From IMG/VR virus record IMGVR_UViG_3300017589_000061, positions 32,001-96,000 of that record: a DNA stretch of 64,000 bases, one strand, 5' to 3'. Positions 25,631 to 55,633 of the stretch are shown piece after piece. Position 1 is the stretch's first letter. The number at the start of each line of letters is the position of its first letter. This DNA comes from a virus. A program made the position numbers and the translations under genes. The notes under the pieces are model-generated. The model worked only from the letters and a program-made list of their open reading frames with translations, had not been told where the DNA came from and did not search any database.

Positions 25631-27599
25631 AAATGATAGCCATATTAAAAAAGGAATCAAGATATAAAAAATATGAAACGGTTGCATTAATAAAAGATGA
25701 TACAAATAATCAATTTATAGTTGCATATCATTTCAAAGAAGATGATAATTTCAAATCTTATGCAGACACACCAAATGATAATATATTTACATTTTTGGAT
25801 GACGAAACACAACTAGGGGCATTAAAACAAGCTATAAATAAATTTGAAACTATAAGAATATAAAAAAATGCATTAAAATTATACAGGGATATAAAATGCA
25901 TATTTTAATGGCTAAAATGTAAAAATAAGTGTTGAAATTTGAACGTTTTAAGAGTATAATAAAATTAAAAATATAAAAATAGGAGGATTTAAAAATGACA
26001 AGATTTTATTTTGATGATGCAGATGATTACAAATTTGGCAACATGGGAAGATTAGAACACGAAGGAAAGATTTATGTATTAGAAGAAGGAGCAGATTTTA
26101 CAAGTAGACAAATAACAGAAAGATCACAGGATTACAATTTCTTTGAATTATCAGCACTTGCACACGATTTAAGTGGAAATAAATATAGTGTTTATTGGGT
26201 ATTCGAAGATGAAGGAAAAGAGTTAGACGAATATGACTACAGCGATATTGACAGAATAATAGAAATATAAAAATTAGAATAGCTTAAATGCTATTCTACC
26301 AGTAAATAAAAATAATTTGTCTATTGGTAAAATAGCATTTATAAAAATAAATTAAAAGGAGGAAATATTATGTTTGCTATTATTAATAAAAATAAACAAT
26401 ATCTAACAAGAAGGGGAATTGATGCAGATTACACTTTTACAGACAATAATAATTTTGCTTATGTGTGGGGAACAATTAATGAAGCTGAAGCAGTAAGAAA
26501 TATATTGACAGATTATCAAGGAGTTAATGATCTTGAAATAGTAGCAATATAACAACAGTACAGAGGTCATAGAATCGATTTTAAGCAACGAAATAAAAAT
26601 AATAATATGAATTTATGGAGGGTTTAAAAATGTTAAATAGAAATGAAATAGGAATTATAGAATTAAGAGACAATAGTTATGTAATCAGAACTGAAAAGGG
26701 TGATTATAGGTTAGACATATACACTGATGGAGTAGTAGTTGAAAAGGGGTATTATGTAGACGCAAGCAGTCATGGCTACATATGGGAAACTAAAGGATAT
26801 TTATTTCATGAAGATGACAGAAAAATTAAAAGAAGAACTAAAAAAATAGCAAATGAAATAATTCAAGAAATAGTTACAATGTTATGTGAAAAAGAATTAT
26901 CTGCATAACCAAATAAAAAGTAGATTTCATCATAATAAAAATAATTATAAATTATATTAAAAAAGAGTTGTATTTTTCAAGAAGTAGTATATAATAGAAT
27001 AAAGAAATTAAAATAAAAATAATAAGGAGAAATAAAATGGAAAAGGTTAAATGTGTAAATTGTGATTGGACAGGGACAAGTGATGAATTGGGGTGGGACA
27101 AAAAATTGAAAATTGAATTATGTCCTAAATGTTTTGGAAATGATGGGTTAGAGTTAATGAAATATGATAATAGAGATGCTGATTGTGAAAATTAGAAATA
27201 AATGAATAGCTTAATGCTATTCTATGAACTAATAAAAATAATTATTAGCTGATAGATTGGCATTAAATAAAAATAAAATAAAAAGGAGAAATAAAAATGA
27301 AAAAAGGGTATGTATTATTAGTAGATGATGAGTGGGAATTTGCAGAATTAACAAAGAAAGATGTTGAAAGAATAAAAGATGATATCAATGGAGAATATGC
27401 TGAACAATATTTAATCAAACTTAATAATGGTGAAACAATTGATGTTGGAATAATTGACGATATAAAAGAAGCTGAAGAATATTATAAAAATAAAATGTAT
27501 GAAGCTATGCAAATTTTAAATGACATAGTATATGATGCTGAAAGAAATAGAATTGAGTGGAACGAAGCATTTAATCAAATGAAATGTGAATTTGTATAA

Positions 27600-27669
27600 A
27601 GTGACTTGTATCACTATAAATAGGTTGTTAGGTGCAAGGCGGTTGCTGTCTTAGGATGGCAACATCAAC
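27600..27669 (+). ncRNA. Pistol ribozyme
   Basis: P1 agtga/tcact, loop cttgta pairing with tgcaag (pseudoknot), ataaatag, P2 gttg/caac, ttagg, GCG, P3 gttgctgtc/gatggcaac, AU cleavage site. Confidence 0.85.
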
Positions 27670-29043
27670 AAAATAAAAATAAAAGGAGAAGTAAAATGAA
27701 AAAGAGTAAGTTAGATAACAAATTTAGGCATCATGCATGGTTTAAAGAAGGGGTAACGGTCAGATATGCATTAGATAATTTTGCTAAAACTTCAGATGTT
27801 TATTTGTCGCAGAAACCTAGCAAACATCAATCAATGAGATTATTTGATCCGATAAACTATGATGATATATTGACAGACGGAAGGTATTCTTATAGACCAA
27901 CAGAGGAAGAAAAAGAGTATTATTTAGAGAGAAAGGCTTACTGGAAAGAGCAAAAAGAAATTAAATATAATGAATGGCTAGATACTGAAATTGACGTTGA
28001 TAAAGAGTTAAGAATACATTTAGGAAATAATTCACATTATGATTTGAGAGGCAGTGAATACCAATTAAATATTTGGAGGAATTATAAGGTAACTGAAAAA
28101 ACTATAAAAGATTATAGTATAGATGAAAAAGAGAGAGCAAGATTAATTGAATCTTGGGAAAACAGAATTAAAATGACAAAAATTACAAGAGCAATAATTG
28201 ATGATTTAATTAGTAAATATAAACATGAAATAAAAACAAATAGAGATTTTGAAAATTTTAAACAGATTATAGACGAAGAATTATCAGAAGTGGTAGTATG
28301 GAATACCGAAACGGTAGACTGGGAACTAATAGCATAATAAATATAAAAATAATAAAAGAGGTGTTTTAATATGGTAAAAATGTTAAAGTATAAAGATATA
28401 TTATTTGATGATTATTCAAAAGACGAATACGGAACATACTCAACAATATGTAAAAAGTGTCAAGAAAAATATAAAAATAATCTATCCAATAATGAAATTG
28501 ATAATGGAACAGGTGGAGGTGTTTGTGGAGTTAAGGGTTGTACAGAATCAGATTGGGAAACAGAAATTGATGTTGAATATATAGATTTTAAAGATGGTGA
28601 ATTTGAGATAGTAGAAATATAACAATAAAATTATAATAAAAGGGGAAGTAAAATGAATGATGAAGAAAGAAAAGAATTAGAAGAATTCAAAGAAATAGAA
28701 TGCGAATTCAAATGTGTTGGATGTAAAATGGCACAATTATGTTATGAAGAATCTAAAGAACAGGCAATAAAAGAAGGGTGGTATTAAAAATGAAAGATAG
28801 TTATTTTGTAAAACAAGATTTATTAAAATATAAAAATGAATTAGAAATAAAAATAAAAAACTCCAAAGGTCAAGAATATTTTGAAGATTTTTATGGTGGT
28901 GAATTAAGAGGTATAAATATGGCAATAGATTTTATTGATGGATATTTATATTATAAAGATGATATGTTATTTAACAAATAAAAATATAATAATAAAATTA
29001 AAAATAAAAAAGATGTGGTTTATGTGAGGGGTGGAATAGTAGT

Positions 29044-30228: not shown

Positions 30229-31812
30229 AATATATAAAAATAAGGAGAAATAAAAAAATGAGAGTAAAGTTTGGTAACAGAATAAGATTATGTGCAACAA
30301 TTACACATTCTGACGATAGCAAATTATTAATAATTACAACAATTAGTAATGAAGTATATACAGCAGATATGTTAACAATTAAAAATGCTGAAAATTACTT
30401 TGATAAATTACTTAAATCGGGATATTGTGATTTATCAGAATATGAATATAGTAATTAAATTATAAGTGTATAAAATGATTGTTTTAAACATATAAAAATA
30501 AAAATAGAAAAGGGGATAAAATGAAAATAGGTCATACTTACATAGGAATACATGGGAATAAAAAGGGTTGGAAACATTATTTACTACCTAAAAATTATTA
30601 TGGTAGCAAATGGAAACATTCATATTTTCAATATTATATAAGATGGTTTAATATCTTTTGGTGTAAGCCTAGAAAATGTGAAAAGTGTGGAAATTATATG
30701 GTTGGTGATGGTCATCATATTTGGGATAAAGAAGGAAATAAAATTTTAATAACAGTATGCAGAGAATGTTACAACGAAAAGGGATGTAGTGGTTGGATAG
30801 ATTGGGCGTGGGTTCAGCAAACAAAATAAAAATAATTGAGGTGACAGTATGATACAAATAATATTAATTGGAATTGTGTGGTTGTTTTGTAAGTCATTAG
30901 GAATATAAAAAAAGGAGAATAAAATGAGATCAAAGAGAAATCAAATATATAATTGTTGTAAATTCATTCATTACCTAGATATAGTTGATAGAAATTTTAC
31001 ATTAGATAATTATAAATGGTTAAATGATTTTAATAGCAATGAAATATTTAAAAGTTACAATATTGAATTAAGTAAAAATGAAAAAGAAATGTTAAAATCA
31101 AGATTAGAACAAATAAAAATAAATCATGCTGAAGAAGTAAGAATATATGACGAACAGATACATAAAAAAGCAATGAAGTCACTTGGAGAATTAAGTTATA
31201 TGCTCAGTTTAGTAAGTGGGAATAATCATTATAATGATTTAAAGGGGTTAATGCGATGAATAGAGATATTTTAATAAAAAATATAACAATAATTGAAAAG
31301 TTTGCCGACTGGTTAAGAGAGAAAAGCATTTATGATGATTATGATTATTGTAATATTGATGACTTATTGGATGATGACGATGAAGAAGAGGAAGATGTAG
31401 CGGATAGATTATATAGAATAGTAAAAAATATGGAAAAAGAATTAGAAGTATGTAACAATAAATTATTAGAGAAATATAAAAATAAATTTTAGGAGGATTT
31501 AAAATGGATCAAGAAAATAAAATAAAAAATATTATCAATGAATTAAAATTAAAGTTTCAGGAAAATGTTTATATAGATAAAATAAATCAAATTTATTTTG
31601 TCGAACTGACTCTAAAAAATAAAATTATATTTGGTCAATATAATAATTATAATAAAGAGTTGTATAATGCTTTTAATGAATCGGCACTTACTTCTATTGA
31701 AGAATCAGACAATGATATAATATTAGGTTTTCAATTTTACATATAATCTGTTAGGATAATAAAACAGTTGTTTTAAGAATGTAAAAATAAAAATATAAAG
31801 GAGAATATAACA

Positions 31813-32214: not shown

Positions 32215-34223
32215 TAATTGATTAAGTAAAAATAAATTAGTATAATAATAGTAAATAAAAATATTGTTTTAACACAGGAGGATTTATGAATCAAGAATGG
32301 TATAATCCAAATAATGTAACAGCAGATAACTTTAACGAAACTATGAGGGGATATGTAAAATATGCTTTAAGAGATGTAGAAGCAACTTTAAAAAATAAAG
32401 GTTTCAGTAATGAACAGATAGAAGATTTTAAAACTTCCTTTAGGGGTAGTTTAAATTGGTCAATAGATATGATGACAATGGAAGAAGCAAGAAAATATTA
32501 TAACAAATAAAAATAATTCAAAAGGGGGTGGAGTGGTAAATGAAAATTAGTGAAGCTAAAAAACTAAAAATAGGTGATGTTATTTATGAAAAAATACATG
32601 GTTATAAAATGACAATTGAATCTATAAAAGAAAGCAACTCGACTGGGGAAAATAAAATAATAATAGGATGCAGAACTAACGATAGTGGTTTATTATTTAT
32701 ATATGATCACAAAGAAGTTATAATAAAAAATTAGTTTTATTAGAAAGGAAATGTAAAAATGAGCAAAATATATGAATATCAAGGATATAAAATTCAAAAT
32801 TCACCTTATGGAAGTGAAGCGAGATGGTTTATATTTGATGAAAATATGGAACGAATAAAATTCATATCACCATGTAGAACATTAAAAGACGCTAAAAAAG
32901 AAATTGATGATATGATAAAAAGGAAATTTTAAGGGGTGATAAGATGGAACAAAAACATTTTAAAATTAATGTATTTATAGATTCAACAGATAGTAAAATG
33001 AATATTGAAGTGCTTAGAAATAAGTTTACGGAATGGACTAGACAAAATAATTTAACATTTTGTGGTTCATTTGGGGAGATTGAGGATGAACAAGAAAATA
33101 AAAATAATCAAATTTGTTTATATTGTAGCAACTCACTATCAACAGATGATGATAAATTATACTGCGTTGTAAGAGAAGAAATGGTAGAAGAAAATGAAGG
33201 TCAAGAATGTGGATGGCATAATATATAAAAATAAAACGGTCATTTTAAGGTAAAAATATTATGAATTTTAAAGGGAGAAATTTAGTATGGATACGAATAG
33301 TTTAAATAATTTAAAAAAGCGTACAGAAATAGGTTCAGTGTTTTTATCAAAAATTAAAAAATATGATAGGTGGATTGATGAAATTAAAGACCATGAAGTG
33401 ACAAGTGCTTGGATTGGAAGAGAGTTGGTTGATTTCGAAGAAAATTGTGCATCTTGTGGTATACAAGGTATTTGCACAGAAGAGGAAGCTAAAGAATTGT
33501 CTGAATTTATAACAAAATATTTGGTGGACAAGATTGAGAAAAAGAAAATTCAGCTTGAAGAGTCATTTAAAAATCTTTAGTAAATAAAAACAGCATTTTA
33601 ACTATATAAAAATAAGGAGAATGTAAAAATGAAGAATACTGAAGAAGTTTATTTAGTAAGATATGGTAAGACTTGGTTTACAGATGGTGAAATCGAGCAA
33701 CGTTATAAATTTAAAAATATAGATACATTATTAGAGACAATGAAAAGTTGTTTGTCCGATGGTGAATGGGTAGAAGATTTGAATGGTAATAAAATAGATA
33801 TAAAAATAGAATATGCTAAAAGATAAAAGTGATATTTTATCGCACAAATGATAAAAATAAACATTGAAATATCAACGATTATAGGAGGTAAAAATGCAAG
33901 AACTAATTAATTTGGGAGTAGCATATACTGTAGATGGTTACAATGAATCTAAAAAAGAATTAAAAAAGTTTGAGAAAAAATATAATATGAAATCAAAAAT
34001 ATTTTATGACAAAATTAATAGAGATATTTGCTCAATACGTATTCCAACAGAAGATGTTACTGATTGGATATTTAACTGTAATGTTTTTATATCATGTGGT
34101 GGAAAATTATGATGAGGTTATTTTGGAAGTGGTTATATAAATTAGAGTATCAACAAATTAAATTAAAAAAATATGTTGACAAGTTAATATAAAAATAGTA
34201 TAATGTAAAAAAGGAGTTATATT

Positions 34224-35547: not shown

Positions 35548-35572
35548 GAATTAAATTAAAGGGAGACAACAA

Positions 35573-36262: not shown

Positions 36263-36269
36263 AAAAGTA

Positions 36270-36298: not shown

Positions 36299-36344
36299 AA
36301 CATATAATAGAAATATAAAAATAAATCCAATAGGAGGAATAAAA

Positions 36345-37298
36345 ATGATAAATTTAGAATTAATTCAAGAAGAGAATATGACATTAATAGAAAATTATAT
36401 AGGTGGAAAAAGAAGATCAAATACTAAAGAGAGTTATAAATCGGATTTAAAGGTTTTTTCCCAAGAAATAAAAAAATCACTATTAAACGTTAACATTGAT
36501 GATATAAATTATTATTTTTATACTGTATTAGCTGATTACTCGCCAAGTAGTAAAAATCGTAAATTATCTAGCATAAGGGATTTTTATGAAGATTTATTAT
36601 ATAGAGATATGTATAATGATGAACATAATAAACCTCGTAGAAATCCAGTTGGTAGAATGGAAGTATTTAAAGTTGATAAAAAAGAAGAAATCAAAGCTTT
36701 AACCAACGAACAAGCTAAACAGTTTTTTAAAGAAATAAAAAGAAATATAAAAATCGCTGAATCGGATTTTCAAAAAAAACTCCATGTTAGAAATTTAGCT
36801 ATGGCTCATATTTTAATCAATACAGGATTAAGAGTAGAAGAATTAACAACATTAAACTTCAATGAACTTCAATTAGAAGATAAATATATAGTATTAACAG
36901 CAAATAAAACTAAAAGCCAAAAATCAAGATATTTAGATTTAGGAGATACTACAATTGAATATATAAATAATTATCTTGAAATTAGAGATGAATTTAAGCC
37001 AACAGAAAAAGACAAGAAGTATATTTTTCTTAGTGGGCGAGGTAAAAAAATGTCAACTAATTCAGTAAATGAATTTTTAAAAAAATATGCCGAAGCTGAA
37101 TCATGCAAAATAGATAATATACATGCACATCTTTTCCGTGATACATTTGGTACGAATTATTATAAAAAGAACAAAGATATCAAGGGTTTGAAAAACAAGC
37201 TTGGTCATTCGAGTATAACTACCACAGAAATCTATATTAATATTATAGATAAAGCAGGTGATGGAACAATGACTAATTTATCAACTGCTAATTATTAA
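36345..37298 (+). CDS. Tyrosine recombinase (Xer-like), catalytic residues intact
   Basis: TGLRVEE, KTKS, HLFR, LGHSSITTTEIY. Confidence 0.93.
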   Translation: MINLELIQEENMTLIENYIGGKRRSNTKESYKSDLKVFSQEIKKSLLNVNIDDINYYFYTVLADYSPSSKNRKLSSIRDFYEDLLYRDMYNDEHNKPRRNPVGRMEVFKVDKKEEIKALTNEQAKQFFKEIKRNIKIAESDFQKKLHVRNLAMAHILINTGLRVEELTTLNFNELQLEDKYIVLTANKTKSQKSRYLDLGDTTIEYINNYLEIRDEFKPTEKDKKYIFLSGRGKKMSTNSVNEFLKKYAEAESCKIDNIHAHLFRDTFGTNYYKKNKDIKGLKNKLGHSSITTTEIYINIIDKAGDGTMTNLSTANY

Positions 37299-37458: not shown

Positions 37459-38796
37459 ATGTATTTTATGAAAGTTGAACCGAGTATTTTAAAAGATAGA
37501 ATTGACGAGATATTAATAGAATTAAATCAAAATGGTCAAATAAAAAGGTTGTTGGATAGTAATTTACTAGACGAATATATGAATGGTTCGTTGCTAACCA
37601 AAACATTAAATCAAAATCTACCTTTAAACAATAGGTCGATATCAGAATTATATCATATAAGTCGTTTAATTAATACTTTACAACCAAAAATCAAAGTTGA
37701 CGAATATTTTACGGATGATGAAATAACACAAGCCATTAATAATAAAAATAATATAAAAATAGAGAGTAATCCTTTGATAAAACTTAAAGATGTTTTATAT
37801 TCTAAAAACAACAATGAAGAAACTTGGATGACTATGGTTACTTATAAAGAAATTAATGAATGGATGAAAACAGGAAAGCTAGGCTATAACATGGAAACAC
37901 AAAGAGTTGGGAAGATGCGTAAAATTGGTCACAAGATGTTTGTTGTCCCACATATAAATGATAATTCAGTAGAAGATATCAAAGATGCTCTAGTGAAGAA
38001 TGAATTTTATTCTAATATGATTTCATTCAATATTACACCAGATTACAATAAAAAGTTAGAATACAATCCAGTAGAAAAAACTTTAACTATTGACACAGCA
38101 ATCTTTGATGTGGATGTTATTGACGGGTATCATAGATGTTCAGGTATTGTTAAGGCTTTTGAAGTTGATTCAAATTTGGAGGGTGAATTATATTTAAAAG
38201 TTACTAACATGAGTATCGAGAAAGCTCAAAAGTTTATTAGACAAGAATCTAAAAGTAATATTCAAAATCAAGATGCTTTAGAAAAATATAATCCAAAAAA
38301 TAAGATTACAAGATTTGTTAAAAATATAAACGAAATGGGTTCTGAAGAAAGTAATGCGTTATATAGAAAAATAGACATGGGAGTAAATACTCGTAATACT
38401 TGGATAATGTTTGAAACTTTTAAAGAAGGATTAGATTTATCTGGGTTTTTAAGAGAAATTAATTACACTGATGATAGAACAAAACTTAAAAATATGGAAA
38501 TTTTTATTGTAACTTTCTTTGATAATTTTTATAAAATCGCAAATGACTATAAATTAAATGATAAGAAACGAGAAGAATTAACTGATCCTACGTTTATTAA
38601 AGGTTTGATAGTCACTTGTTATAAGTTTTATAAAAGTGGGAAAGGAATTGATATAAATTTGATATCAGCAATGGAAGTGTTTATAAAAAAATTCAAAACA
38701 ACTACAACAAAATATACCTACGAAAAAACTCTAAAAACTAAAGAAGAAACGAAATATATCAATAAGTTTAAGAGGTTATTGGAGGTGGAAAACTAA
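37459..38796 (+). CDS. DGQHR/DndB-like (ParB-fold) protein
   Basis: YNMETQR, VIDGYHR; position matches SPbeta yopQ. Confidence 0.7.
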   Translation: MYFMKVEPSILKDRIDEILIELNQNGQIKRLLDSNLLDEYMNGSLLTKTLNQNLPLNNRSISELYHISRLINTLQPKIKVDEYFTDDEITQAINNKNNIKIESNPLIKLKDVLYSKNNNEETWMTMVTYKEINEWMKTGKLGYNMETQRVGKMRKIGHKMFVVPHINDNSVEDIKDALVKNEFYSNMISFNITPDYNKKLEYNPVEKTLTIDTAIFDVDVIDGYHRCSGIVKAFEVDSNLEGELYLKVTNMSIEKAQKFIRQESKSNIQNQDALEKYNPKNKITRFVKNINEMGSEESNALYRKIDMGVNTRNTWIMFETFKEGLDLSGFLREINYTDDRTKLKNMEIFIVTFFDNFYKIANDYKLNDKKREELTDPTFIKGLIVTCYKFYKSGKGIDINLISAMEVFIKKFKTTTTKYTYEKTLKTKEETKYINKFKRLLEVEN

Positions 38797-39774
38797 ATGA
38801 TTATTGATAAAGAAAAGAAAAACGAATATTTAGAGAGTATTAAAACACGAAATGAAGAAAAAACTTATGAGTTATATAGTAAATTGATATCTAAACTAGC
38901 CGAGTATGAAGAATATAAAGGAATTCATGCAATCAATATGACTAAATTAGATTTTATGGAGTTTTTAACTATGATGAATTCCTCTAGTCTTAGTGTTCTA
39001 TACACTTATAAAAGTGCGATTAATAGTTATTTGATATTTGCAACTGATAAACAGAATTTCACACTTGGTTTATTAGAATTAGATAAAATTAATCAAGATG
39101 ATTTATTGGAGTGTCTTAATAAAAAAGCTGAATTAATGCAGTTTATAACCGAAAGTGAATATTATGAGATATTAATGAAAGTAGATGATAATGGTAAACT
39201 TATCGGAAATTATCAAGATAAATTAGTAATTATTCTTTTGTGGAATAAGATTAAAGGCGAGACACAATTTAGCGATTTATTAAATTTAAAAGTATCGAAT
39301 GTAGATTTTCAAAATAAAGCAATAAATTTAAAAAATAAAATAATACAATTATCAGATGTCGAATTTGATATTATGAAAAAAGCAATAAATGAACAAACTT
39401 ATATTAGAACCACAATGACTAAAAAGGGATTAGTTAATGAAACTCCAGTTGATATCTTAGAAGGTGATTATCTTGTAAAAGCTACAATTGGATCAACTAA
39501 TAAAGATGTAGATAATAATAGGTGTACGTATGGTACTTTTGCTAATAGAATGAGTAAATATTATACTATCGTTTTACAAAGAAGTGGATTAACAAATCAA
39601 AGAATTTATAAAAGTAGTGTTTATTATCATATGTTAAAAGAATACGGAAGAAAACTTAGCCTGGGTGAATTAATGGAGTATCTAAAATTACATGGTGAAA
39701 AAGTTTCATTGTCTAACACTTACAGAGAACAAGAAATTATGTTTAAGAAAATGATGGATCAGGGCGAAATTTAG
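38797..39774 (+). CDS. Catalytically degenerate tyrosine-recombinase-fold protein, MrpR/YopR-like repressor candidate
   Basis: SAM-like N-domain; DKLVIILLWNKIKG...DLLNLKVSNVDF lacks the GxR, HxxR and LGH motifs; synteny with SPbeta yopR. Confidence 0.6.
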   Translation: MIIDKEKKNEYLESIKTRNEEKTYELYSKLISKLAEYEEYKGIHAINMTKLDFMEFLTMMNSSSLSVLYTYKSAINSYLIFATDKQNFTLGLLELDKINQDDLLECLNKKAELMQFITESEYYEILMKVDDNGKLIGNYQDKLVIILLWNKIKGETQFSDLLNLKVSNVDFQNKAINLKNKIIQLSDVEFDIMKKAINEQTYIRTTMTKKGLVNETPVDILEGDYLVKATIGSTNKDVDNNRCTYGTFANRMSKYYTIVLQRSGLTNQRIYKSSVYYHMLKEYGRKLSLGELMEYLKLHGEKVSLSNTYREQEIMFKKMMDQGEI

Positions 39775-40134: not shown

Positions 40135-43100
40135 GAGGTGACATGATGAAAATGTGCATAATGTGTTTGGAAAAATTAGCTGAAGATTATTCAGATTATT
40201 GTAAAGAGTGTGAAGAAATATTAGAAGAAGAAATACATAAGGAAATAAAAAGTTAATTTTAATAGAAAGGAAAATCAAATGAATAAAGATATAGAAAAGA
40301 ATATGAATAATACAATAAAACGTATTGATGAGAGTATAGATTATTACGATAAAAAATGGGATATTAAATTTAATAAAATGGGGAAAACTTTAAAAGATAC
40401 ATCTAAAATAATAAAAAGTATTAATATAATTTTAATTATAACATTTGTAATAATTATAGGATTAATGATTTTTTATAATAAAAAATTACTTTTATTATAA
40501 AGATTAAATTAAAAAGGAGAATGAATATGTTGATTAGGAGTCAAGATAAAGAAATAATTATCAACTTAGATAGAATAACAGCTATTGCTAAAAGTAAAGA
40601 TAATAATATTATTGTAACCGAAAGTCCGATGGCAAGATTAAATGAAATGTTGTCAATTGGGAAATATTCTACTAAAGAAAAAGCATTAAAGGTTTTAGAT
40701 ATGATAGACGAATTTCACTATCAGTTTATTAATTCACAAAATCCTAAAAGCACAACGGTGACATATACAGTATTTCAAATGCCACAAGAAAATCAAGTGT
40801 AATAAAAGATATTATTTATCGGAAAGGGGATTAAGATGAAAGTATTAAAAAGAATATGGAATTTTGATAAACAAGATATGAAACATATGAAATGGTTGTT
40901 TAAGCAGTTATTTAAACATTTTTTCATAGGAGTATTCATTGGGAACATGGACGAATTTGTTGATACTTGGTTTTGGATCAAAATACATTGCTGTTATGAC
41001 AGTAAGAAAATAAATTAAAGTAGGTGCAAAAGTGGAAGATTTGTTAAGAAGAACAATTAAACAATCAGTTCCGACACATGCCGTTAAATTTATTATTGCA
41101 AATATAACATGTTTCTTTTTAGTAATAATCGGAACATTTTTATTAGTAGTAAGAGAGTACAATATAAACAATGTTATCCGAGCAGATTTCTTTGCTACTG
41201 GATTAATGATGGCTTTAGGAAACATGGTGTTAATAATCACAGGGATAGCGAGTATTCGTGATTATAAAAAGACTATATTAGGATGTTTAGATGATATTAA
41301 AGAAGCTGATGAATACTGTGAAAATGTGATTAAAGAAACAGAAAATAAGAGGGGTTAAAATGGATTACGCAGATAAGTTGGATTTTATGGATGATGATTG
41401 TGATATACAAGGCTTTCCAATTGAAGATGAAGGAGAGAAAATGAATAGTACAGAAAAAGCAAATTTATATAATGAAACTTTAAAAAAGATAGAGGATTTG
41501 TTAATAGAAACAGATTCTAAATTAGGTGATATGCAATCGTTAGAAATATTATCTTCTATAGTTAGAGATTATGATTTAATAACAGCAAGTAATTTAATTA
41601 AAATGAATTGTGATCCATACCTTACTAAATCAATATTAGAGGATAGAATGTATGGCGAAGGAAATGAAGAAGCAGGATTCATATCATTAACATCTTTACT
41701 TGAATCAGTTGAAGAAATAATAAATTGTGATGATAGTGATATGGGTGAAGTTAAATTTCAATATCTTGTCCGACCTGAAACATCAGAAGAAGCAGAAGAA
41801 AATGAGCATGATGAATCTGATGCTACATGGTATATAAAAGATGAAAATATTGATATTGAAAAGTTAAATATTCAATTTGAATTTGAATAAAATTAGGAAT
41901 TTATAAGGAGAGATAAAATGAAAGAAGTTAAATTATATGTTGAAGATAATGGTTATAGAGATTACGAAGATACGGATACATTACTAGACCAATTAAAAAA
42001 GGAATATGATAAACCAAGACCTGTAGTTTTACAATTATATGATAATGAGGGACAAATAATTATTGGTAGATGCACTTGTGTAATTGGAACATTAAAAAAT
42101 GGTTCTTTTCTTTTAACTGGCAATATTGATGATATTCTCTGTGAAAAGTAATAAAACTAGGGTTTTATGAGAATTATAACGTTGAAATTTCAACGATTTA
42201 AGGAGAGTGAAAATGGATATATTAGAAAGTAAAGACGTAATTACAAAAAAAGAACATAATTGTTTTGGTTGTGGGAGAAAATTCCCAAAAGGATCAAAGT
42301 TAAATTTCACAAAATCAGTCGATGGTGGAGAATTTGCAAGTGCTTATTGGTGTAAAACTTGTCAAGAATATTGGGAAAAAAATATGTCATATGACGATGA
42401 AATAGGCTATGGGGAATTAAAATCAGAAGATTTTAGAGTATGGGAAATAATCAGAAAGGAAGTTGAAGTAAATGAATAAATTCGAACACTTCACAGATGA
42501 TGAATTATACATATTGAAACGTCAAGCAATAGAATCATCTTGGGAAATTTGTGGATGTGGAGCATATAACGAATTTGAAGTTAGATTACATGAAAAGTTA
42601 ATGAATGAAATTGCAGATGAAGTTAAAACGAGAGGGTGTTAGAATGTTAAAAGTAAAAGATTCAGTAGGTGGAATTTACAAGAGAACTAAAGATGGGAAA
42701 GAAGAATGGTATCTACTTGAAGATACAATTAACAAAATTGTTGAAAATGGGAAAGGTAGAAAATATTATACAAAGTCAAAATTTGTTCCTTTAGACGCAG
42801 ATGATATTGACGATAATACAGAAATTTTGGAAAATGCCAAAGGATATATTATTACAAGAGAAGTATTCGGGTTGAATGATATTACTCGACCTAAAGCGGA
42901 AAATTGGGTTGAATGGGCGAATGAAAATATGGATAAAGCAGTAAGTGTTTTTGAATAGGGTGATAAATTCGTTGTTTTATTAGAAGCATGATGTTGAAAT
43001 TACAACGTTTATGGGAGGTGAAAAAATGAAAAATAAAGATAATACAATATATAAAGTATACATAATTGAAAACGTCACAATTTTAATTTTAGCAGGGTTT

Positions 43101-45193
43101 TTATGTTATATATTCAAGAGCTTATGGGGATTGTTACCCTTAGTATGTTTAAATACAGGTGTTAAAACAAGAAGTAATGATGATGAAGAATAGAAGAAGT
43201 AATTTAAACGAAACAAGGCTAAATTTAAAAATGACCGCATTTGATTTAAAAATATGAATAATAAAAGGGGAGTAAAATGGATAACCAATTTACAAATAGT
43301 ATAACAAAAAAATTAATAGAAATACACAAAGAAGAGCAGAGGGATTTTCTTACTGGCGAAAAAGATTTATTAGTTCCAAAAAATGAATTTATAGATAAGA
43401 TAATGAAATATGAAAATGGAGAAAGTTATCTTGAAGTAATTTCTATGGAAAATTCTATTTTTGAAAGACAAGGGTTGGTTCATGGTTTTTCAGATGAAAA
43501 TTGGGATACATATTTTAAAATACCTAATTGGGATAATTTTATGAGTGGAGTATATGCATTTTATATAGCTTGTTATGCTGATGAAGATGAAGAAGAATAA
43601 ATTAAAATAAAAGGTGTGTTTTAATATAAAAGGAGATTAAATTATGTTGACAGTTAGGGAAGCATCAATTATATCAGCATATACAGGGGTTTTAATTGGC
43701 GAATTTAGTGACATGTGTAAATATATCGAAGAGAAGTTAGATAGACCAGTTTTTACTCATGAATTAGGAAATAGTGACGTGTGGGAAGAATTAAAAGCAG
43801 TTTGTAAGGAAGATTTTATAAATATTCCAATAGAAAAATAGATAAATTAAAAGGGGTGTAAAAATGCTTTTAGATAAAGAAGATAGATTTTTATTAGTTG
43901 ATGAAGATGGTAATGTAGTTATTGTAACAGAAATAGAAACGAATCATTTATTGACAATGAATTCATCTATGCCAGTAAGAGGTAAATTAATAAGATTAGA
44001 TTATGAAGATTTAAATGTTGATAGTATTGAAGATGTAGAAGTACAATTAAGTTTTTATATAGAAAATATTGAAAATATTACAAAAAGATAAAAGAACTCT
44101 TTTATTACTTATAGTGAAGATTTAGATATTGAAATTTCAATAAAAAAGGAGAATTAAATGATAATAGAAAATGCTTTAATAATGAATATTATGAAAACTG
44201 AAAATGGGCTAGATATAACAAAAGAAATGGTTGAAAATTCCTTAGAGAGTTTTATAAATGCTCCGATAGTTTATAATGAAATGGGTACGTTTAAAGACTA
44301 TAAGGATGAGTCATTTAAAGATTATTTTAAAAAGAATATAGTTATTGGTATGGTATTAAAAAATGTAAATATTGCAAATGATGAAGTTAGAGCTAATATT
44401 TTAATATATGACGGATGTATAAATCTTTGGGCAGATAAATATGATAATTGGTGCATTAAATTAGCTGAAGATAAGAAAAGTTTTACCGTTGATTCAATAG
44501 AAGTATTTTAAATAGAAAGTATATTTTATGGGAGACAAAAATATGGATATGTATACTAAATGTAATAATTGTAAAAAAGAATTAAATATTGAAGATGCAA
44601 AAAAGCAAATTGTAAATAATGGGATTTGGATGAATGAAAAGATAATTTGTAAAGATTGTTATGAAAAAGAAATAAAAAAGTTAATACAACAGTTATGTAA
44701 AACCTATAATTTAAAATATGAAAACTGTTTTACTGAAATAAAAAATAATCATTTGCTGATAAAAACAGAATTAGGTGAAATTAACAAAGAATATTACGGT
44801 ACAGATACTTATTATTTTGTAATAGACACTTATAATAATATTAGATGGATACAAAAAGATGATATAGAATTTAATTTACATAATGAAAATAATAATGCTA
44901 TTGAAAGAATGATTGAATTAATAAAATTTATGTGTGATAAATATTGAAATTTCAACGTTTAAAATTGTAAAGATTATGATAAAATGAGATTTTTATCGGG
45001 AGGGCGAAAATCATGAGTGATACTCATCTTAATGGTAAATATATTAAAAGTATTGATAGAATTGATGACAAAACAATTCACATCAATCTAAAAAATGGAA
45101 AAATTGTAGTGATAAGAGCTACAATGTGTGATTATGATGATTGTGAATTGATTATTAGAAGATAAAATTCAGACTTTATCAGGAGGTTAAAAA

Positions 45194-47042: not shown

Positions 47043-47363
47043 GGTTATATTTATAAAAGGAGTGAAAAGTGAAATAATGACTAGACATAAGTATATGAAG
47101 GTAATAAAACATATTAAAAGATTATTTTGTTATCACAAATGGGATATAGTAGGAAATCCTTATTTGTGGGATTATGGTAAAACTAAAAGAGCAAGTGTCA
47201 GATGTATAAAGTGCAATAAATTATCAGATATTGACATCTTTGATACGCCTAAAAGAAGATTATATTAAAAAGATAAAATAACGGTTTTATCCGAATTATA
47301 GGTCGAAAAAACGTTGAAATTTCAATGGTTATGGAATGTATAAAATTTAAAAAGGAGTAATAA

Positions 47364-48056: not shown

Positions 48057-48079
48057 AAATATAAATAAAAGGATAAAAT

Positions 48080-50150: not shown

Positions 50151-50624
50151 TTGTTAAACGATTCATTGTTTAGTAGTAAAGATCAAGCGTGGGAAACTCC
50201 ACAAGATTTATTTGATAAATTAAATTCAGTTTTTAATTTTAAAATAGATGTTTGTGCAGTTCCAGAAACAGCAAAATGTAATACATATTTTACACCAGAA
50301 ATAGATGGGTTAAAACAAGAATGGAAAGGTAATTGTTGGATGAATCCACCATATGGTAGAGAACAAATTAAATGGATTGAGAAAGCAAGTAATGAAAATG
50401 CAACAACAGTTTGTTTAATTCCTGCAAGACCTGATACAAAAGTATGGCATGAAACAATATTTAAAAAAGCCAAAGCTGTTTGTTTTATAAAAGGAAGATT
50501 AAAATTTGGTGGCAGTAAAGATTCAGCACCATTTCCAAGTGCCTTAATAGTATTCGGAAATGAATTGACAGATGATCAGAGAAAAGTATTAAATGAGTTG
50601 GGTAAATTATACATAGAAAATTAA
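50151..50624 (+). CDS. Phage Dam-family N6-adenine methyltransferase
   Basis: WETPQDLF, DVCA, WMNPPYG, LIPARPDT, GRLKF, APFPS. Confidence 0.9.
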   Translation: MLNDSLFSSKDQAWETPQDLFDKLNSVFNFKIDVCAVPETAKCNTYFTPEIDGLKQEWKGNCWMNPPYGREQIKWIEKASNENATTVCLIPARPDTKVWHETIFKKAKAVCFIKGRLKFGGSKDSAPFPSALIVFGNELTDDQRKVLNELGKLYIEN

Positions 50625-50705
50625 ATTAAAATGATAAAACCAAGATTTTATTATACAAAATCAAAAATTGAGCGTTGAAATTGCAACGAATTTAGGAGGT
50701 AAGAA

Positions 50706-51387
50706 ATGAATAAAATTGAAAATGCAATTATGAATTTAAAATCACTAGACAATCAAGCAGATTTATATGGTTTTCAAATAGATACTATAAATTTAGCAAT
50801 AGAAGCACTTGAAAGGCAATTAAATAATGGTTGGATTCCTACAAAACAAAGATTACCAAATATGAAAGAATGTCAAAAGAATGATTGTAGATTTATTGTT
50901 ACAGACGGAAATAGAGTTTATGGAGATAGTTTTGATTATCTTGCTGATGGATACATAGAACCAAAATGGGTTTATTCGTCAATGTGTGAACCGATAGCAT
51001 GGCAAGAGTTACCTGAAAGATATAAGGAGGTAAAAAATGAATAATGTTGAGATTAAAAAAGCAATATATACAATAGAACATTTTCAAGAACTTATTGGCG
51101 ATTATGAAACCAGAGAACATATAGAGGATTTAATAGATTCAATAGATTTAGCAATTGAAGCACTTGAAAAACAATTAAATGGTGGTTGGATATTATGCAA
51201 TGAAAAATTACCAGATGATATACCACCAGATAATAATTTTGGTGTTGATTATTGGATTACATATTTAGATGAATATAATAATCCTGCGGTTGGAGTGTAT
51301 GAGTGGTTGTGGAATAGAAAATGGAATATAATACATAAAGTTATAGCTTGGCAACCATTACCAAAAGAATACAAAGAATTAAGTTAA
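50706..51387 (+). CDS. Two tandem DUF551-like proteins (50706-51044, 51037-51387)
   Basis: Shared LAIEALE.QLN.GWI...LP...IAWQ.LP. Confidence 0.7.
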
Positions 51388-51667
51388 AATATAAAACGAG
51401 GCTTTATTGGGAGGTTAATAATATGTCAAAAGAAACAGCTATAAATGTTATTAAAGCATTTTTAAATGGTGGCATAAAGGCAGATGATAACGCATTTAAA
51501 GTAGCTTGTAAAATTGCAATAGAAGTAATGGAAGAAAGTCCCAAACAATCTATATTCTCAGATGACCTTATAAATCATCTGATAGATAAACATATTGCTG
51601 AAATTGTAAGTAATAATTAATAATAGAATCTATAATTTAATGATATTTAAAAAAGGGAGAAAATAAA

Positions 51668-52858
51668 ATGAATTATGAATTTGAAAAGAAAAAATTAAAA
51701 GCATACTTAGGAAGTAACATATATAATTCCTTAAAAGCAAGACAATGTATTATAGCTGGTGGTATGATAACAAGTTTATTTTGTAACAGAGAAATAAATG
51801 ATGTAGATGTTTATTTTAGGGATAATGATTCTTTAGAATGTTTTCTTAATGAAAATATAAGAAATAATACGTGGATATTAAGTAAAACAGATAAAGCTTT
51901 ATTAATTAATTGGAATAAATTAAAAATTCAGCTTATATATTTTGATACTTTTGACAACGTACAAGATTTATTTGAAACATTTGATTTTACTGCTTGCATG
52001 GGAGCTTATGATTTTAAGATTGAAGAGTTCGTATTGCATGAAGATTTTATAAAACATAATGCTCAAAGAATATTAAAATTTAATGCTAAAACAGCATATC
52101 CATTGGTTTCAGCTTTTAGACTTGATAAATATAAGTTAAAAGGTTATACAATAAGCAAAGACGAATTTATGAGGATCATGCTAACTTGCTCATTATTAAA
52201 TATTGATACATACGAACAATTCAAAGAACAAATAGGTGGAATGTACGGAATAAATTATGATAAATTTTTAAAGCCAAAAGAAGGCGAGAAATTCGATTTA
52301 TTAGATACCATAGAAAAAATGTCAACGCTGTGTTTGAATGATGAATATTTTAATGGAATAAATACTGATTTTGTAATTGATGATTTTAATATTCTAATAG
52401 CTGAAATTACAAAAAATAAGATAAAATATTTTGAATTCAAAGATAATTATTATATACATACATTTGACGGGATTTCACATATATCAATTTCAGAAATAGA
52501 GAAAAATGTAAATCTTTATGAAAAAGTAGATTTATTCGATAGCATAATAAAAGACGGTAAACTTTATAAATATGTTATGAAGAAAAATAATAAATATTAT
52601 AGCTTTTATGATACAGGTTTTGAATACAAAATAAGCAAAGATATTATTGCTCAAGAAACAAATAGTTTTAGTAATGCAGGAATTTATTGTGGTATGTATG
52701 ATGACAGATTAAGTTTTTCCTATTCATGTTATGATGATTCTGTATTGATAGAAATAGAAGTTAAAAGTGAAGATTTGATAGGAATTGATTATAATGGAAT
52801 GTTTAAATTTAAAAAGGCTAAATTTATCAGAAAAATGGAAAAGGATTCTATAAATTAA
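51668..52858 (+). CDS. Nucleotidyltransferase with CCA/poly(A)-polymerase-like head
   Basis: IIAGG...NDVDVYF...FDFT. Confidence 0.7.
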   Translation: MNYEFEKKKLKAYLGSNIYNSLKARQCIIAGGMITSLFCNREINDVDVYFRDNDSLECFLNENIRNNTWILSKTDKALLINWNKLKIQLIYFDTFDNVQDLFETFDFTACMGAYDFKIEEFVLHEDFIKHNAQRILKFNAKTAYPLVSAFRLDKYKLKGYTISKDEFMRIMLTCSLLNIDTYEQFKEQIGGMYGINYDKFLKPKEGEKFDLLDTIEKMSTLCLNDEYFNGINTDFVIDDFNILIAEITKNKIKYFEFKDNYYIHTFDGISHISISEIEKNVNLYEKVDLFDSIIKDGKLYKYVMKKNNKYYSFYDTGFEYKISKDIIAQETNSFSNAGIYCGMYDDRLSFSYSCYDDSVLIEIEVKSEDLIGIDYNGMFKFKKAKFIRKMEKDSIN

Positions 52859-52947
52859 GTTAAAAATGTAAAGTACATAAAATTTACATTTTATCGTACA
52901 AAACAAGAAAATAAGTGTTGAAATTTCAACAAAAAAGGAGTAGTAAT

Positions 52948-53742
52948 TTGGCAAAGATAGAAAATGATAAATATTATACATCAAAAGAATTAGCTAAATA
53001 CTGTATAGATAAAACATATAAAATTATTGGTTATGACAATATTTCAGAGGTGATTGAACCATCGGCAGGAAGTGGAAATTTTAGTTTACAGATATCTACT
53101 ATTTGTTGGGCGTATGATATTGAACCTGAACACGAAACTATTATAAAAGCTGATTTTCTTGAAAAAGAATTTAATTATTTAGATGGTAGGTTGATAATAG
53201 GTAATCCCCCATATGGTAGATGTTTAAATTTAGCACAGAAATTTTTTAAAAAATCAACTAAATTAGGTGATTATATAGCTTTTATATTACCGATAAGTCA
53301 ACTCAATAATACACAAAGTTTTTATGAGTTTGATTTAATACATAGTGAAGATTTAGGTAAACAAACTTATACTGATAGAGAATTACATTGTTGCTTTAAT
53401 ATTTATCAAAGACCTGAAAGTGGAGAATTGAATAAAAGACCAATAAATAAATTAAAAGACATTTCAATCATAAGACAAGATAGTAAAGGTTATAAAGAAA
53501 AAGATTTTGACATTAGAATGTGTTATTGGGGTGATGGTACAGCAGGAAAAATACTCAACAATGACGAAAATTATTCTGCCGAATATAAGATACAAATACA
53601 TAATGAGCAGTTAAAAGATAGGATAATTGAAGTCTTAACTAATTTTAATTGGAAAGAATACTTGAATTGTATAGCAATGAGAAAAATTCAACAATTTCAT
53701 ATTATTGATGTATTAAAGAAACAAATATCAGAAATAAATTAA
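52948..53742 (+). CDS. Gamma-class amino DNA methyltransferase
   Basis: DKYYT, IEPSAGSG, IGNPPYG; AAGGAG RBS before TTG 52948. Confidence 0.85.
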   Translation: MAKIENDKYYTSKELAKYCIDKTYKIIGYDNISEVIEPSAGSGNFSLQISTICWAYDIEPEHETIIKADFLEKEFNYLDGRLIIGNPPYGRCLNLAQKFFKKSTKLGDYIAFILPISQLNNTQSFYEFDLIHSEDLGKQTYTDRELHCCFNIYQRPESGELNKRPINKLKDISIIRQDSKGYKEKDFDIRMCYWGDGTAGKILNNDENYSAEYKIQIHNEQLKDRIIEVLTNFNWKEYLNCIAMRKIQQFHIIDVLKKQISEIN

Positions 53743-55633
53743 ATTAAAAAGGCAATAAAAACTATGTTTTATGAGAGGTGTTAAAATGAGTAAGATATTA
53801 AAATGGTTTAGTAGCTTAAAAGATTGGCAAGTATTAGTTATTGGTTTGACGTTACTTATAGTTGGTATAACGACAAGTCCATTTGAAGCAGGTGTTTTTA
53901 TGACAATTGAGGAATATATAGAATATACAAAACTTTCAAAAATAGAACAGCAAATCGACTATATAATTAGAGTTATTAAAGGAATTACCTTATTGATGAC
54001 AGCGTTAATGGGTGGTGGATTTATAGGCGAATGGGTGCATAGAAAAACCAAATAAATGTTGCATTTTAAGTCCCAAAAGGAGAATAGTATGTTTAAATAT
54101 TTAAACAAAAAACTTAAATCAATTAAAAAAACAATTATATTTTATATCACTTATTATGATAATCAGCCAAGTCTTTTAGAAAAAGCAAATTTTAAGATAA
54201 ATCAAGAAAAGCCTGATTTTGCTAATCACGAAGGAGACGATTACGAGAGATAAAGTTTATAAATGGTATGAAATTCTTTATATTTAAAGAGTTTTGAGTA
54301 AATTTAAAGGGGTGATAAAATGAATTTAGTTAAAATGGCAAAAGAATTGTTGGATATACATGAAGAAATCAAATATTATACAGGATTTGGTGAATTTAAA
54401 GAAGATGAGTATGATATTTACATATTTGAACAAATGTGGGGAAATACTTCAGGTGGATTTCAAGGTGTAGGCGGATCAGCTATGACAAATCAAAATACAT
54501 ATGTGTTAATACCTAAGTGTGAAGGAAAGTGTTTTGTTTTCTTTGGCGGAATATTTGCTTATAAAGTTCCATATAGTCAGAAATTTATAAAAGATGTAAT
54601 TGACCATAACGTAAAAGGTATACATGGTATGGGAGAGTATTTAAAAAATAACTAAGAAAGGAAAATATTATGGTAGACATTAAGTTTTGTAAAAAAAGTG
54701 GTTGTGACTATTACTTTAACAAAATGGATGACTGCATGTACGGAGACAAAAATTTACCAAAGGATTATTTAAGAATATGTAAAACATCAAGGTACCAAGT
54801 TTATTTAATTGGGAAAGAAAATAAAAAGGAAGGTGAGAAAATGAATCAAACAGTTACAATTACAGGTGAACCAGAACCCTTTGGAAAGTTAATCGTTGAT
54901 AAAGAAGTTTTAATTTATGCTTTATTATGGGCAACAAATATGTCAAATAAATCACCATATAAAATTATAGAAAACATTAGATTAAATTTCGACAAATTAT
55001 CTACTTATGACTTAGAATTTATATCAAAAGAAATTATAGGTAGTGGAAGTTGGAATTTAGAATATGATGGTCAACAGTGGAAAGGATTCTTAGAAGATTT
55101 AAAAAAGGAAATAGAAGGGAGAGAAGATGACTGTTAGAGAATTAATTGAAAAACTTCAGGAATTAGATCAAGACACCGATATATTTATTGAAGGATATGA
55201 GTTTGGTAAAATATCAACATATGATGACATAGATGAAGAAAACTTTTACGTAATAGAAGGTAAAACGTGGAAGTATTAAAAGAGGAATTTTATTAGGTAA
55301 AACGTAAAATTAAGTGTTGGAATTTCAACGTTTAACAAATATAAAAGAAAGGAACATTAAATGAATATTGAAGATTTAAAATTTAAAGAAAGACCTATTG
55401 ATAAATTACATAAAGAATTATTTGAATCATTGCCAGAGTGTAAATATTATAATTTAGGTATAAGTGTGGCGTTATCTTCTTTATATACGATAATTAAAGA
55501 AAGTAAATTAAATTTTAGTAGAGAAGAGTTATTGGAAATTATTAAAATTACAGCAGATCAAAACAAGGATATTCATTATTATTTTTATAACTTAATGGAT
55601 AAATAAATTATTTAAAATTAAATTAAAAAACAC

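Follow-up and report, generated by a model that had tools for sequence, protein, structure and literature searches.

Composite Elements at the Locus

We describe here a composite DNA element that recurs in the genome of the phage represented by the IMG/VR record IMGVR_UViG_3300017589_000061 (hereafter G000). The window, that is, the whole 64-kb stretch of DNA that was analysed, corresponds to bases 32001-96000 of a single contig of 137,366 bp; positions refer to the window unless they are given as genome positions, in which case they refer to the full 137,366-bp record. The element combines two different palindromes, the A box (ATAAAA-N6-TTTTAT, with TAAAA-N6-TTTTA as its core arms) and the B box (GTTGAAATTTCAAC, a palindrome of 14-16 bp, CGTTGAAATTTCAACG), which in the window are separated by either 12 or 22 bp, so that their centres lie 28 or 38 bp apart. 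A preliminary description of the same DNA had listed ten such pairs, and all ten were recovered with the gaps it gave: 22 bp for the cores at 25891, 33823, 44088, 47273, 50634, 52877 and 55276, again 22 bp in the mirror arrangement at 44943/44979, and 12 bp for the cores at 42151 and 42963.

In the first composite (25891..25944; A 25891-25908, ATAAAATGCATATTTTAA; gap 22; B 25931-25944, GTTGAAATTTGAAC) a TTGAAA-17-TATAAT arrangement occurs at 25932, and in the second (33823..33876; A 33823-33840; gap 22; B 33863-33876, 2 mismatches) the left A arm contains the stop codon of the upstream open reading frame (ORF) and B ends 6 nt before an AGGAGG. The two composites with the short gap of 12 bp lie at 42151..42194 (A 42151-42168; exact B 42181-42194, its end 6 nt before the ribosome site) and at 42963..43006 (A 42963-42980 and B 42993-43006, each with 1 mismatch). 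They are followed by 44088..44141 (A 44088-44105; gap 22; B 44128-44141, ATTGAAATTTCAAT, 2 mismatches) and by the reversed composite 44943..44996, in which B (44943-44956) precedes A (44979-44996) across 22 bp and the end of A lies 2 nt before GGAGG. The last four, all with a gap of 22 bp, are 47273..47326 (A 47273-47290, B 47313-47326, with a U box, described below, upstream), 50634..50687 (A 50634-50651, B 50674-50687), 52877..52930 (exact A 52877-52894 and exact B 52917-52930, upstream of a methyltransferase-like gene) and 55276..55329 (A 55276-55293, with a TTAAAA arm; B 55316-55329, GTTGGAATTTCAAC), where TTGGAA-17-TATAAA occurs at 55317.

The G000 genome has 27% G+C and is graded as complete, with direct terminal repeats, by the virus collection. 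A megablast search against deposited phages revealed no close relative, the best DnaB-type matches remain below 30% identity, and a tblastn search for close relatives returned 4 weak records only. Nevertheless, a local BLASTP comparison of its ORFs, called with a crude in-house caller, with those of SPbeta (NC_001884) revealed 16 matching ORFs whose order is largely kept, among them those for the tape measure, the terminase, the YonO-type RNA polymerase, YonV, YopQ, the primase, YorK, the DNA polymerase, the dUTPase and the YomM integrase. On the basis of these matches, of the gene order and of the counterparts of yopP, yopQ and yopR, G000 can be counted as a complete, very distant SPbeta-like phage.

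The order yopP, yopQ, yopR is common to G000 and SPbeta. The first of these genes (36345..37298, +) codes for a YopP-like tyrosine recombinase (Pfam Phage_integrase, 9.2e-32; 24% identity to SPbeta YopP, E 7e-5), with the R, HxxR and Y positions visible in the alignment, which is our candidate A-box binder. The second (37468..38796, +) codes for a YopQ-like protein (24.6% identity to SPbeta yopQ; phrog_5732), and the third (38797..39774, +) for an MrpR/YopR-like protein of 325 aa with a recombinase fold (Pfam MrpR_N_CB 6.3e-5, below the cut-off; phrog_5830; 23% identity to SPbeta YopR, E 1e-5). Judging by synteny, this MrpR-like protein is to be regarded as the ortholog of the SPbeta master repressor; a search for related loci with it as a query found none.

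Spacing of the Two Boxes

The B box is far too frequent to be a product of base composition. Eight copies with at most 1 mismatch occur in the window, against 0.04 expected (the largest number in 100 shuffles being 1), and two more, at 33863 and 44128, have 2 mismatches. The whole genome holds 24 copies with up to 2 mismatches, and for 15 of them the distance to an A box (up to 2 mismatches) is exactly 12 or 22 bp (binomial p 6.5e-27, taken against a position-random model); an A box lies at 16 or 17 bp from 2 copies, and the remaining 7 (5 in coding sequence and 2 intergenic) have none. The view that the junction motif is not AT-rich noise is borne out both by this spacing, which is far above chance, and by the enrichment of the A box at a single arm spacing (see below).

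This finding extends beyond G000. A pattern scan of the viral contigs of IMG/VR retrieved four composite-bearing contigs (among them G001, G003 and G004), whose proteins share only 23-52% identity with those of G000, apart from one short region of G001 that reaches 90%; two of the contigs, G003 and G004, are incomplete (69% and 81%). Of the 13 B sites in these contigs, 10 lie 22 bp from an A-like box, and in the other three the gap is 11, 16 and 18 bp, respectively. In one G003 locus (G003:C1:56642-56779) B stands at the centre of a symmetric A-22-B-22-A arrangement, which suggests that each half of a B-bound dimer can contact an A-bound partner.

A pattern scan of bacterial genomes gave 13 loci. 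Seven are in low-GC Firmicutes, with gaps of 22 (4), 12 (2) and 13 bp (1), and the bacterial carriers of the same composite are low-GC Clostridia metagenome-assembled genomes (MAGs); the other six, with gaps of 14, 15, 17, 20, 23 and 24 bp, are in unrelated or higher-GC taxa and were taken as chance occurrences. In the five carrier MAGs (about 17.8 Mb) 8 of the 9 exact B copies have an A box at 12, 13 or 22 bp; a host transcription-factor regulon for B was rejected on these figures, with only 9 exact copies in about 17.8 Mb, 8 of them composites. When G000, the four viral contigs and the Clostridia MAG loci are pooled, the 39 distinct B sites with at most 1 mismatch have gaps of 22 (22 sites), 12 (8), 11 (1), 13 (1), 16 (2), 17 (1) and 18 bp (1), 3 sites being without an A box, and no site has a gap of 19-21 or 23 bp.

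A scan of IMG/VR that started from B alone returned at least 112 loci. Among the matches listed, 101 of the 104 evaluable B copies have no A box within 60 bp; the A-less copies in higher-GC unrelated contigs were treated as chance, and the idea of B as a generally meaningful 14-mer was dropped. The other 3 of these 104 copies all have a gap of 22 bp and lie in low-GC DNA, two of them in contigs of 124 and 135 kb. Moreover, B is absent from SPbeta, phi3T and the unrelated Bacillus phage SPP1, and a k-mer and offset analysis of the SPbeta A boxes revealed neither a B-like partner nor a second box at a fixed distance. B is therefore a clade-specific add-on to the A box, and within the clade it almost never occurs without it, which would mean that B acts through A.

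The preliminary description had seen the composite as a core with an accessory site, similar to those of cer/psi or lambda att, and the core-only copies as scars. The rarity of B without A within the clade is in agreement with the first part of this idea, B being an accessory of A; membership of the cer/psi or lambda att type did not stand (see the last section). The scars are contradicted by the counts. Only 16 of the 76 A boxes of G000 (up to 1 mismatch) belong to composites, 15 of its 27 perfect A boxes have no B, and SPbeta and phi3T, with 38 and 33 A boxes, respectively, have no B at all, so that A alone is the default state and core-only copies are normal.

The sequence between the boxes had been called unconserved. 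It is indeed mostly variable; yet the 24 gaps of 22 nt have a mean pairwise identity of 0.390, against 0.315 (standard deviation 0.006, maximum 0.337) in 200 shuffles, and they follow a 10-bp rhythm. Of the 22 sites compared, 21-22 have A/T at each of the gap positions 6-9 and 16-19, and positions 2-4 and 10-12 hold most of the G/C; sub-families such as cgYACAAAA...AAAATAAGt and ccGAATTATAg are visible. Taken together, the A arms, the tracts in the gap and the AAATTT centre of B place A/T tracts every 10-11 bp over the whole element, and the 12-bp class corresponds to the 22-bp class minus one period. A/T tracts at the helical period would be expected where DNA bends around proteins bound to one of its faces. 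The earlier suggestion of two factors bound on the same face of the DNA fits both the two gap classes and this alternation of A/T and G/C in the spacer.

A further motif, the C box (TAAAAATAA(A/G)), follows A boxes of G000 as well as of SPbeta at a distance of about 5 nt (in other cases 11 or 18 nt), for instance at 30488-30503 and 31777-31792, and it forms the B-proximal half of several 22-bp gaps.

Distribution of the A Box in the SPbeta Family

The A box of G000 is enriched at one arm spacing only. With N6 there are 27 exact copies and 76 with at most 1 mismatch; the other spacers from 0 to 15 give 0-4 exact copies and 14-29 with at most 1 mismatch (N5 gives 22), and the everted arrangement of the arms gives 0-2 and 14-30, respectively. 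SPbeta has 13 exact A boxes and 38 with at most 1 mismatch at N6, against 0-1 and 3-10 at other spacers, and phi3T (KY030782) has 33, against 3-8. In SPP1, which was the sole control, no enrichment was found (1 copy at N6 vs. 0-3 elsewhere).

The placement of the boxes is also similar in the two phages. In G000, 62 of the 76 A boxes are located outside or at the edge of gene calls, vs. 114 of the 320 control-spacer matches, and 23 A boxes have the upstream stop codon within or adjoining their left arm; A and B boxes sit between the stop codon and the next ribosome site. In SPbeta, too, the box lies between the upstream stop codon, which adjoins its left arm, and a ribosome site, and the flanks of the box widen its symmetry to about 11-6-11. 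Based on these data, the A box can be considered a junction palindrome that is common to the whole SPbeta family.

Two inverted arms around a 6-bp centre (5-6-5 in G000) correspond to the arm geometry of tyrosine-recombinase (Xer/dif-type) sites. The N6 sequences of the 27 exact A boxes vary, with no position-specific conservation. Changes in the half-sites are uncompensated, single-arm variants numbering 26 and double-arm variants 2, and the outer bases of N6 can pair at 26 sites vs. 32 expected in G000 and at 15 vs. 16.4 in SPbeta.

Some A boxes lie close to promoter-like sequences. Within 49774-49824, an A box (TTAAAACATTGCTTTTAT) is followed after 4 nt by the -35 of a strong TTGATA-17-TATAAT promoter, and at genome positions 12758 and 112006 a TATAAT overlaps the left A arm, with B 16-17 bp off.

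Homology Breakpoints and the Possibility of Recombination

In the early region, the breakpoints of homology between SPbeta and phi3T fall at 13 of the 24 junctions with an A box and at 19 of the 111 others (odds ratio 5.7, p 3.3e-4, with the ends of high-scoring segment pairs not being independent events). With intergenic lengths limited to 20-150 bp the figures are 11/20 and 8/50 (p 0.0016). Identity starts at the first base of the A box, centre included, at 5 breakpoints and ends inside the box at 2. The A box is thus a junction that coincides with breakpoints of homology between the two phages.

The main alternative to a regulatory role is that of the preliminary description, a recombination core with an accessory site. 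A phage tyrosine recombinase (YopP-like, YomM-like or Xer-like) would carry out crossover at A and a B-bound dimer would activate, block or direct this site, the composites being the controlled joints of a gene-cassette exchange system. The core-site geometry of A (5-6-5, and about 11-6-11 in SPbeta) speaks for such a system, as does the fact that B is almost never found without A within the clade. The comparison with G001 points in the same direction: the window positions 47260-47326, which embrace a U box, A, the gap and B, form an island of about 72 columns that is about 93% identical to G001, with unrelated flanks on both sides, and the gene ending at 50624 is followed by A-22-B in G000, its G001 homologue being followed by B-22-A and a different gene. 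In addition, G000 has four recombinase-fold genes, one of which ends inside a composite; a Xer-like enzyme is encoded at genome 125312-126310. The idea is also in agreement with what the available parts of PMC6449649 report on pdif modules, in which Xer-type sites bound mobile modules.

Several points argue against it. The 6-bp centre varies from site to site. In systems such as Xer, Cre and lambda Int, differing centres block classical strand exchange between sites. Products of recombination (deletions, inversions or circles) were not observed, and 19 of the 32 breakpoint junctions have no A box; breakpoints at A might equally be due to recombination at short sequences of any kind that the phages share, or to selection that keeps ORFs intact, since the upstream stop codon adjoins A. 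Furthermore, the accessory sites of cer/psi and lambda consist of long regions or of arm repeats, unlike a 14-bp palindrome at 12 or 22 bp, and Pfam scans of the four recombinase-fold proteins revealed SAM-like/core-binding and catalytic domains only, with no arm-binding domain. On balance, we regard this recombination system as possible, if doubtful. Somewhat more doubtful is its specific form of a phage-borne cassette exchange, in which a tyrosine recombinase of the SPbeta family would act on A boxes that each carry their own 6-bp "address" and, in the Clostridia-type clade, the B protein, rigidly phased with A, would switch or direct chosen joints; if true, it would represent a core with a minimal, dispersed accessory site, which differs from the Xer, integron and lambda-type systems described so far.

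Possible Transcription, RNA and Partition Signals

A different explanation is that the composites are promoter modules for the host RNA polymerase, similar to the curved-DNA promoters of Bacillus phages or to the promoter early stem-loops (PeSLs) of T4-type phages. B would provide a -35 hexamer, which is TTGAAA on one or the other strand, A and the phased tracts would represent curved or UP-like DNA whose helical register has to be kept, and recombination at the composite linkers would be a by-product. This would account for the A/T tracts that, with a period of about 10-11 bp, span A, the gap and the centre of B, and a -10 sequence is indeed located at 17 bp in the composites with 25932 and 55317 and, as a third case, in TTGGAA-17-TATAAA at genome 125272 on the minus strand; as far as the text of PMC4122927 at hand goes, PeSLs, small composite promoter/terminator motifs, occur at points of exchange. 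On the other hand, a good -10 box (at least 5/6) at 16-18 bp from B is found at only 3 of the 17 A-linked sites, vs. about 9% by chance, and at 7 G000 sites the ribosome site begins 5-7 nt after B, too close for a -10 to fit in between. Either box can come first with respect to the gene, and promoter-like sites in the region 40000-58000 are not above shuffles (140 vs. 138.1). The true strong promoters use a U box with TTGACA instead, and B as a sigma-A promoter element was rejected, 3/17 not being above chance. We therefore consider a promoter module unlikely.

The U box (TTA[AT]ATTAAAA) has 74 copies in the genome, nearly all on the coding strand of the local genes, for instance at 46495-46505, 55618-55628 and 34158-34168, and its longer form, ATAAATTAAATTAAAA, has TAA in all three frames. 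It is followed by an A box, by a TTGACA-17-TATAAT promoter, as in about 13 strong early promoters, or, directly, by a ribosome site.

The position of the boxes between a stop codon and the next ribosome site also fits signals in the RNA, namely hairpins in a polycistronic early mRNA that would act in processing, as 5' or 3' stabilisers or as the operator of a translational repressor. B ends 5-7 nt before the ribosome site at the 7 G000 sites just mentioned and at 2 MAG sites, A precedes B in the direction of the gene at 13 sites and follows it at 4 (as read from the tables of sites and strands), and two hairpins are predicted at most of the ten composites of the window. These folds, however, are weak, with minimum free energies between -5.8 and -11.1 kcal/mol and z-scores of -0.30, -1.98, -0.59, -1.13, -1.44, -3.26, 0.00, -2.25, -1.02 and -0.59, that is, from 0.0 to -2.3 in nine and -3.3 in one. 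Several B variants break the pairs of the would-be stem (by eye), and the single-arm A variants and the non-complementary ends of N6 do not reveal any covariation. In the reversed B-gap-A arrangement the gaps are the same, and a search of the whole window with Rfam at gathering thresholds gave 0 matches. RNA or single-strand hairpins were rejected on these grounds, together with the flipping of the box order, and we regard an RNA signal as very unlikely. The same search concerns the hammerhead and pistol ribozymes proposed at 24903-24966 and 27600-27669, which have no Rfam match at gathering thresholds, variant cores not being excluded by it.

Lastly, the boxes might be dispersed centromere or silencing sites for the ParB-like protein of the phage. 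Scattered centromere sites are found in the plasmid-prophage N15, and plasmid RK2 has KorB operators. G000 encodes a ParA-type ATPase (7070-7918, +) and a ParB_N-domain protein (5084-6127, -), B is a palindrome of 14-16 bp with about 17 dispersed copies, and KorB and KorA are, in the accounts of RK2 at hand, cooperating global repressors with separate palindromic operators. Against this, ParB_N is found in G000 only, and the identical B occurs in G003 and G004, incomplete as these two are; moreover, KorA and KorB cooperate over varying distances according to the part of PMC4889941 at hand, vs. the rigid 12 or 22 bp of the composites. Such a role for B appears extremely improbable. The two partition genes, an FtsK/SpoIIIE-like gene (13178-14764, -) and the direct terminal repeats are hints of a plasmid-prophage lifestyle.

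Proposed Mode of Action

The explanation that we favour, to which we would give a probability of roughly 0.4, is that two proteins cooperate on one face of bent DNA and that the output is mainly regulatory. Paired palindromes that are dispersed upstream of genes act in most cases as operators. Half-sites that decay independently, use of the element in either orientation and rigid phasing suggest that double-stranded DNA is bound by dimeric proteins. The geometry of A, with its inverted arms around a 6-bp centre, would make it the type of site that a protein with a tyrosine-recombinase fold might bind, and B would be a clade-specific, operator-type palindrome for a second, dimeric factor. The A/T tracts every 10-11 bp in the spacer might place both proteins on the same face of a bent DNA, so that they would bind cooperatively and B would work only through A. 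In the prophage, the complex would then most likely control the early module that lies downstream of it, acting as a repressor or as a roadblock. What is observed is the motifs, their spacing, conservation and placement, the lack of RNA-type covariation and the breakpoints at A between SPbeta and phi3T; we infer the binding of proteins, the identity of the binders, their cooperativity, the bending and the regulatory output.

As to SPbeta, MrpR binds a dispersed element, SPBRE, upstream of about 10 genes, as stated in the passages of PMC10516654 at hand. Site number, placement and gene context match, and for this reason the A/B complex might play the part that MrpR on its SPBRE operators plays in SPbeta. 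The authors of that paper themselves suspected that MrpR needs extra factors for its specificity in vivo. Since the composites are conserved linkers, they might at the same time serve as crossover points when relatives recombine. Regulation and recombination are not mutually exclusive, in that a conserved regulatory linker may also invite exchange, as is reported for the PeSLs of T4-type phages (PMC4122927).

A number of findings weigh against a regulatory output of this kind. The strongest early sigma-A promoters (U box with TTGACA-17-TATAAT) carry neither A nor B, which leaves it unclear how an A/B complex would silence, and, as reported above, -10 boxes at promoter distance from B are no commoner at A-linked sites than by chance. 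The gaps of 16-18 bp, a minor class of 4 among the 39 pooled sites, are about half a turn off phase. The island common to G000 and G001 is kept independently of both neighbouring genes, which a positional joint would explain better than a gene-specific operator. In chromatin affinity purification sequencing of MrpR in SPbeta only ten peaks were found, at SPBRE-bearing promoter regions (PMC10516654, in the part at hand); these peaks sit at SPBRE and not at A boxes, so that A has another binder or none in lysogens.

The comparison of candidate binders among the phages is a further difficulty. The B boxes agree to the letter in phages whose MrpR-like and YopP-like proteins can hardly be aligned (G000 vs. 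G004: 32.6% over 89 aa, E 0.006, and 33% over 54 aa, E 1.8e-4, respectively), and no conserved DNA-binding candidate is common to G000, G003 and G004, the last two being incomplete. The proteins that these three phages do have in common are the tape measure, the YonO-like RNA polymerase, a MazF-like protein, YorK, the DNA polymerase, a deoxyribonucleotidase-like protein and the YomM-like integrase, with no obvious B binder among them.

Four candidates for the B binder were rejected by co-occurrence: ParB_N (G000 only, 1 of 5 records), a SpoIIID-like protein (over the cut-off in G000 only), sigma-70 region 2 (G004 only) and an HU-like protein (G000 only). The SpoIIID-like helix-turn-helix protein (Pfam 2.9e-25) is encoded at 39883-40134 (+), directly 3' of the MrpR-like gene; at the equivalent position of G004 there is a sigma-70 region 2 protein (about 80095-80592), followed by a composite. 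The MazF/PemK-like toxin gene (35137-35547, +) belongs to the lysogeny module (35137-40134) and has homologues in G003 (41%) and G004 (32%), its product being one of the few non-structural proteins shared with these phages. In phi3T the arbitrium system modulates the host MazE-MazF system (PMC10769878, in the text at hand).

Two other features of the genome may be mentioned. Two ORFs located outside the window, at genome 21814-23133 and 23418-23924 (-), are each similar to YonF, the SPbeta terminase (39% and 45% identity), so that the terminase gene appears to be split, possibly by an intron or an intein; an ORF at genome 28514-29263 weakly matches the YonO-like ORF of G003, and the YonO-like RNA polymerase gene of G000 may also be split.

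SPbeta is a model temperate phage, and in SPbeta and phi3T the A box marks points at which gene modules are exchanged; the A half of the element is directly testable in Bacillus subtilis. If the composites are regulatory, they would show how very large temperate phages silence or schedule about a hundred small early genes, and they would suggest partners for recombinase-fold repressors such as MrpR. If they are recombinational, they would constitute a new addressable device for gene exchange.

Relation to Described Systems

The system closest in context is that of SPBRE and MrpR. It shares with the composites the phage family, the yopP-yopQ-yopR order and the dispersed intergenic elements upstream of early genes, so that G000, too, has a dispersed early-gene element in a phage with an MrpR ortholog. 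We derived SPBRE from the upstream regions of the ten genes that PMC10516654 names; the motif so extracted is about ATAGACAAATACAAAWAATATGTATAT, and SPbeta has 13-14 SPBRE-like places, often directly before a ribosome site, vs. 17 A-linked B sites in G000. By eye the motif is unlike A or B, the SPBRE pattern not having been scanned against G000, and SPbeta has no B. In the SPbeta literature, as covered by a term search and by passages including those of PMC10516654, no A-box-like dispersed repeat, palindrome or mosaic is mentioned, the motif itself not having been searched.

The PeSL elements of T4-type phages (PMC2839356 and PMC4122927, both in the parts at hand) resemble the composites in being small conserved elements between small, variable and co-oriented genes, and they mediate modular shuffling in those phages (PMC4122927); the composites, too, are found at the endpoints of gene replacements between relatives. 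Unlike in PeSLs, neither box acts as a sigma-A promoter or as a stem-loop terminator, and the composite consists of palindromes at a fixed helical phase with a weakly conserved spacer.

Xer cores with accessory sites and the pdif modules of Acinetobacter plasmids (PMC6449649, in part) have in common with the composites the arms around a 6-bp centre, the position at the boundary of modules and the second element on one side only. Xer partner sites have the same central region, as classical strand exchange requires; the A centres are not shared between sites. The accessory regions of cer/psi are much longer and bind the host proteins ArgR/PepA or ArcA. In contrast, B is a single palindrome of 14-16 bp that lies 12 or 22 bp from A and, when compared by eye, is unlike the ARG box. 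In lambda att, the integrase has a separate arm-binding domain and the arm-type repeats are distant from the core. G000 differs from this in that its recombinase-fold proteins have no arm-binding domain and B adjoins the core as a palindrome. The attC site of integrons is a long imperfect palindrome bounded by RYYYAAC ... GTTRRRY, which is used as a folded single strand by an IntI-type integrase. The composites are instead made of short palindromes with perfect arms and uncompensated variants, although the halves of B resemble, by eye, the attC motifs placed back to back and reversed.

Among regulatory systems, the K-box of ComK consists of two AAAA-N5-TTTT boxes 8, 18 or 31 bp apart (PMC3536758, in the passages at hand) and is similar to the composite in having A/T dyads on one face of the helix and spacers that differ by whole turns. 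It differs in that A has N6 and not N5, that B is different from A and that the composites are found in phage DNA and with Clostridia-type hosts. The KorA and KorB operators of RK2 (PMC4889941 and PMC11790492, in part) are likewise two palindromes dispersed over a mobile genome. They are bound by two cooperating repressors. Among the composite-bearing phages, a ParB-like gene is found in G000 only.

Judged by their defining features, the composite is not a member of the Xer-cer/psi, lambda att, attC, PeSL, K-box or SPBRE classes. We suggest that it is a bipartite, protein-binding junction element, a variant that would have arisen in a distant clade by the addition of B to the A box of the SPbeta family; in that clade, the A box gained an obligate partner at a rigid helical phase, which is the signature of a multi-protein complex.

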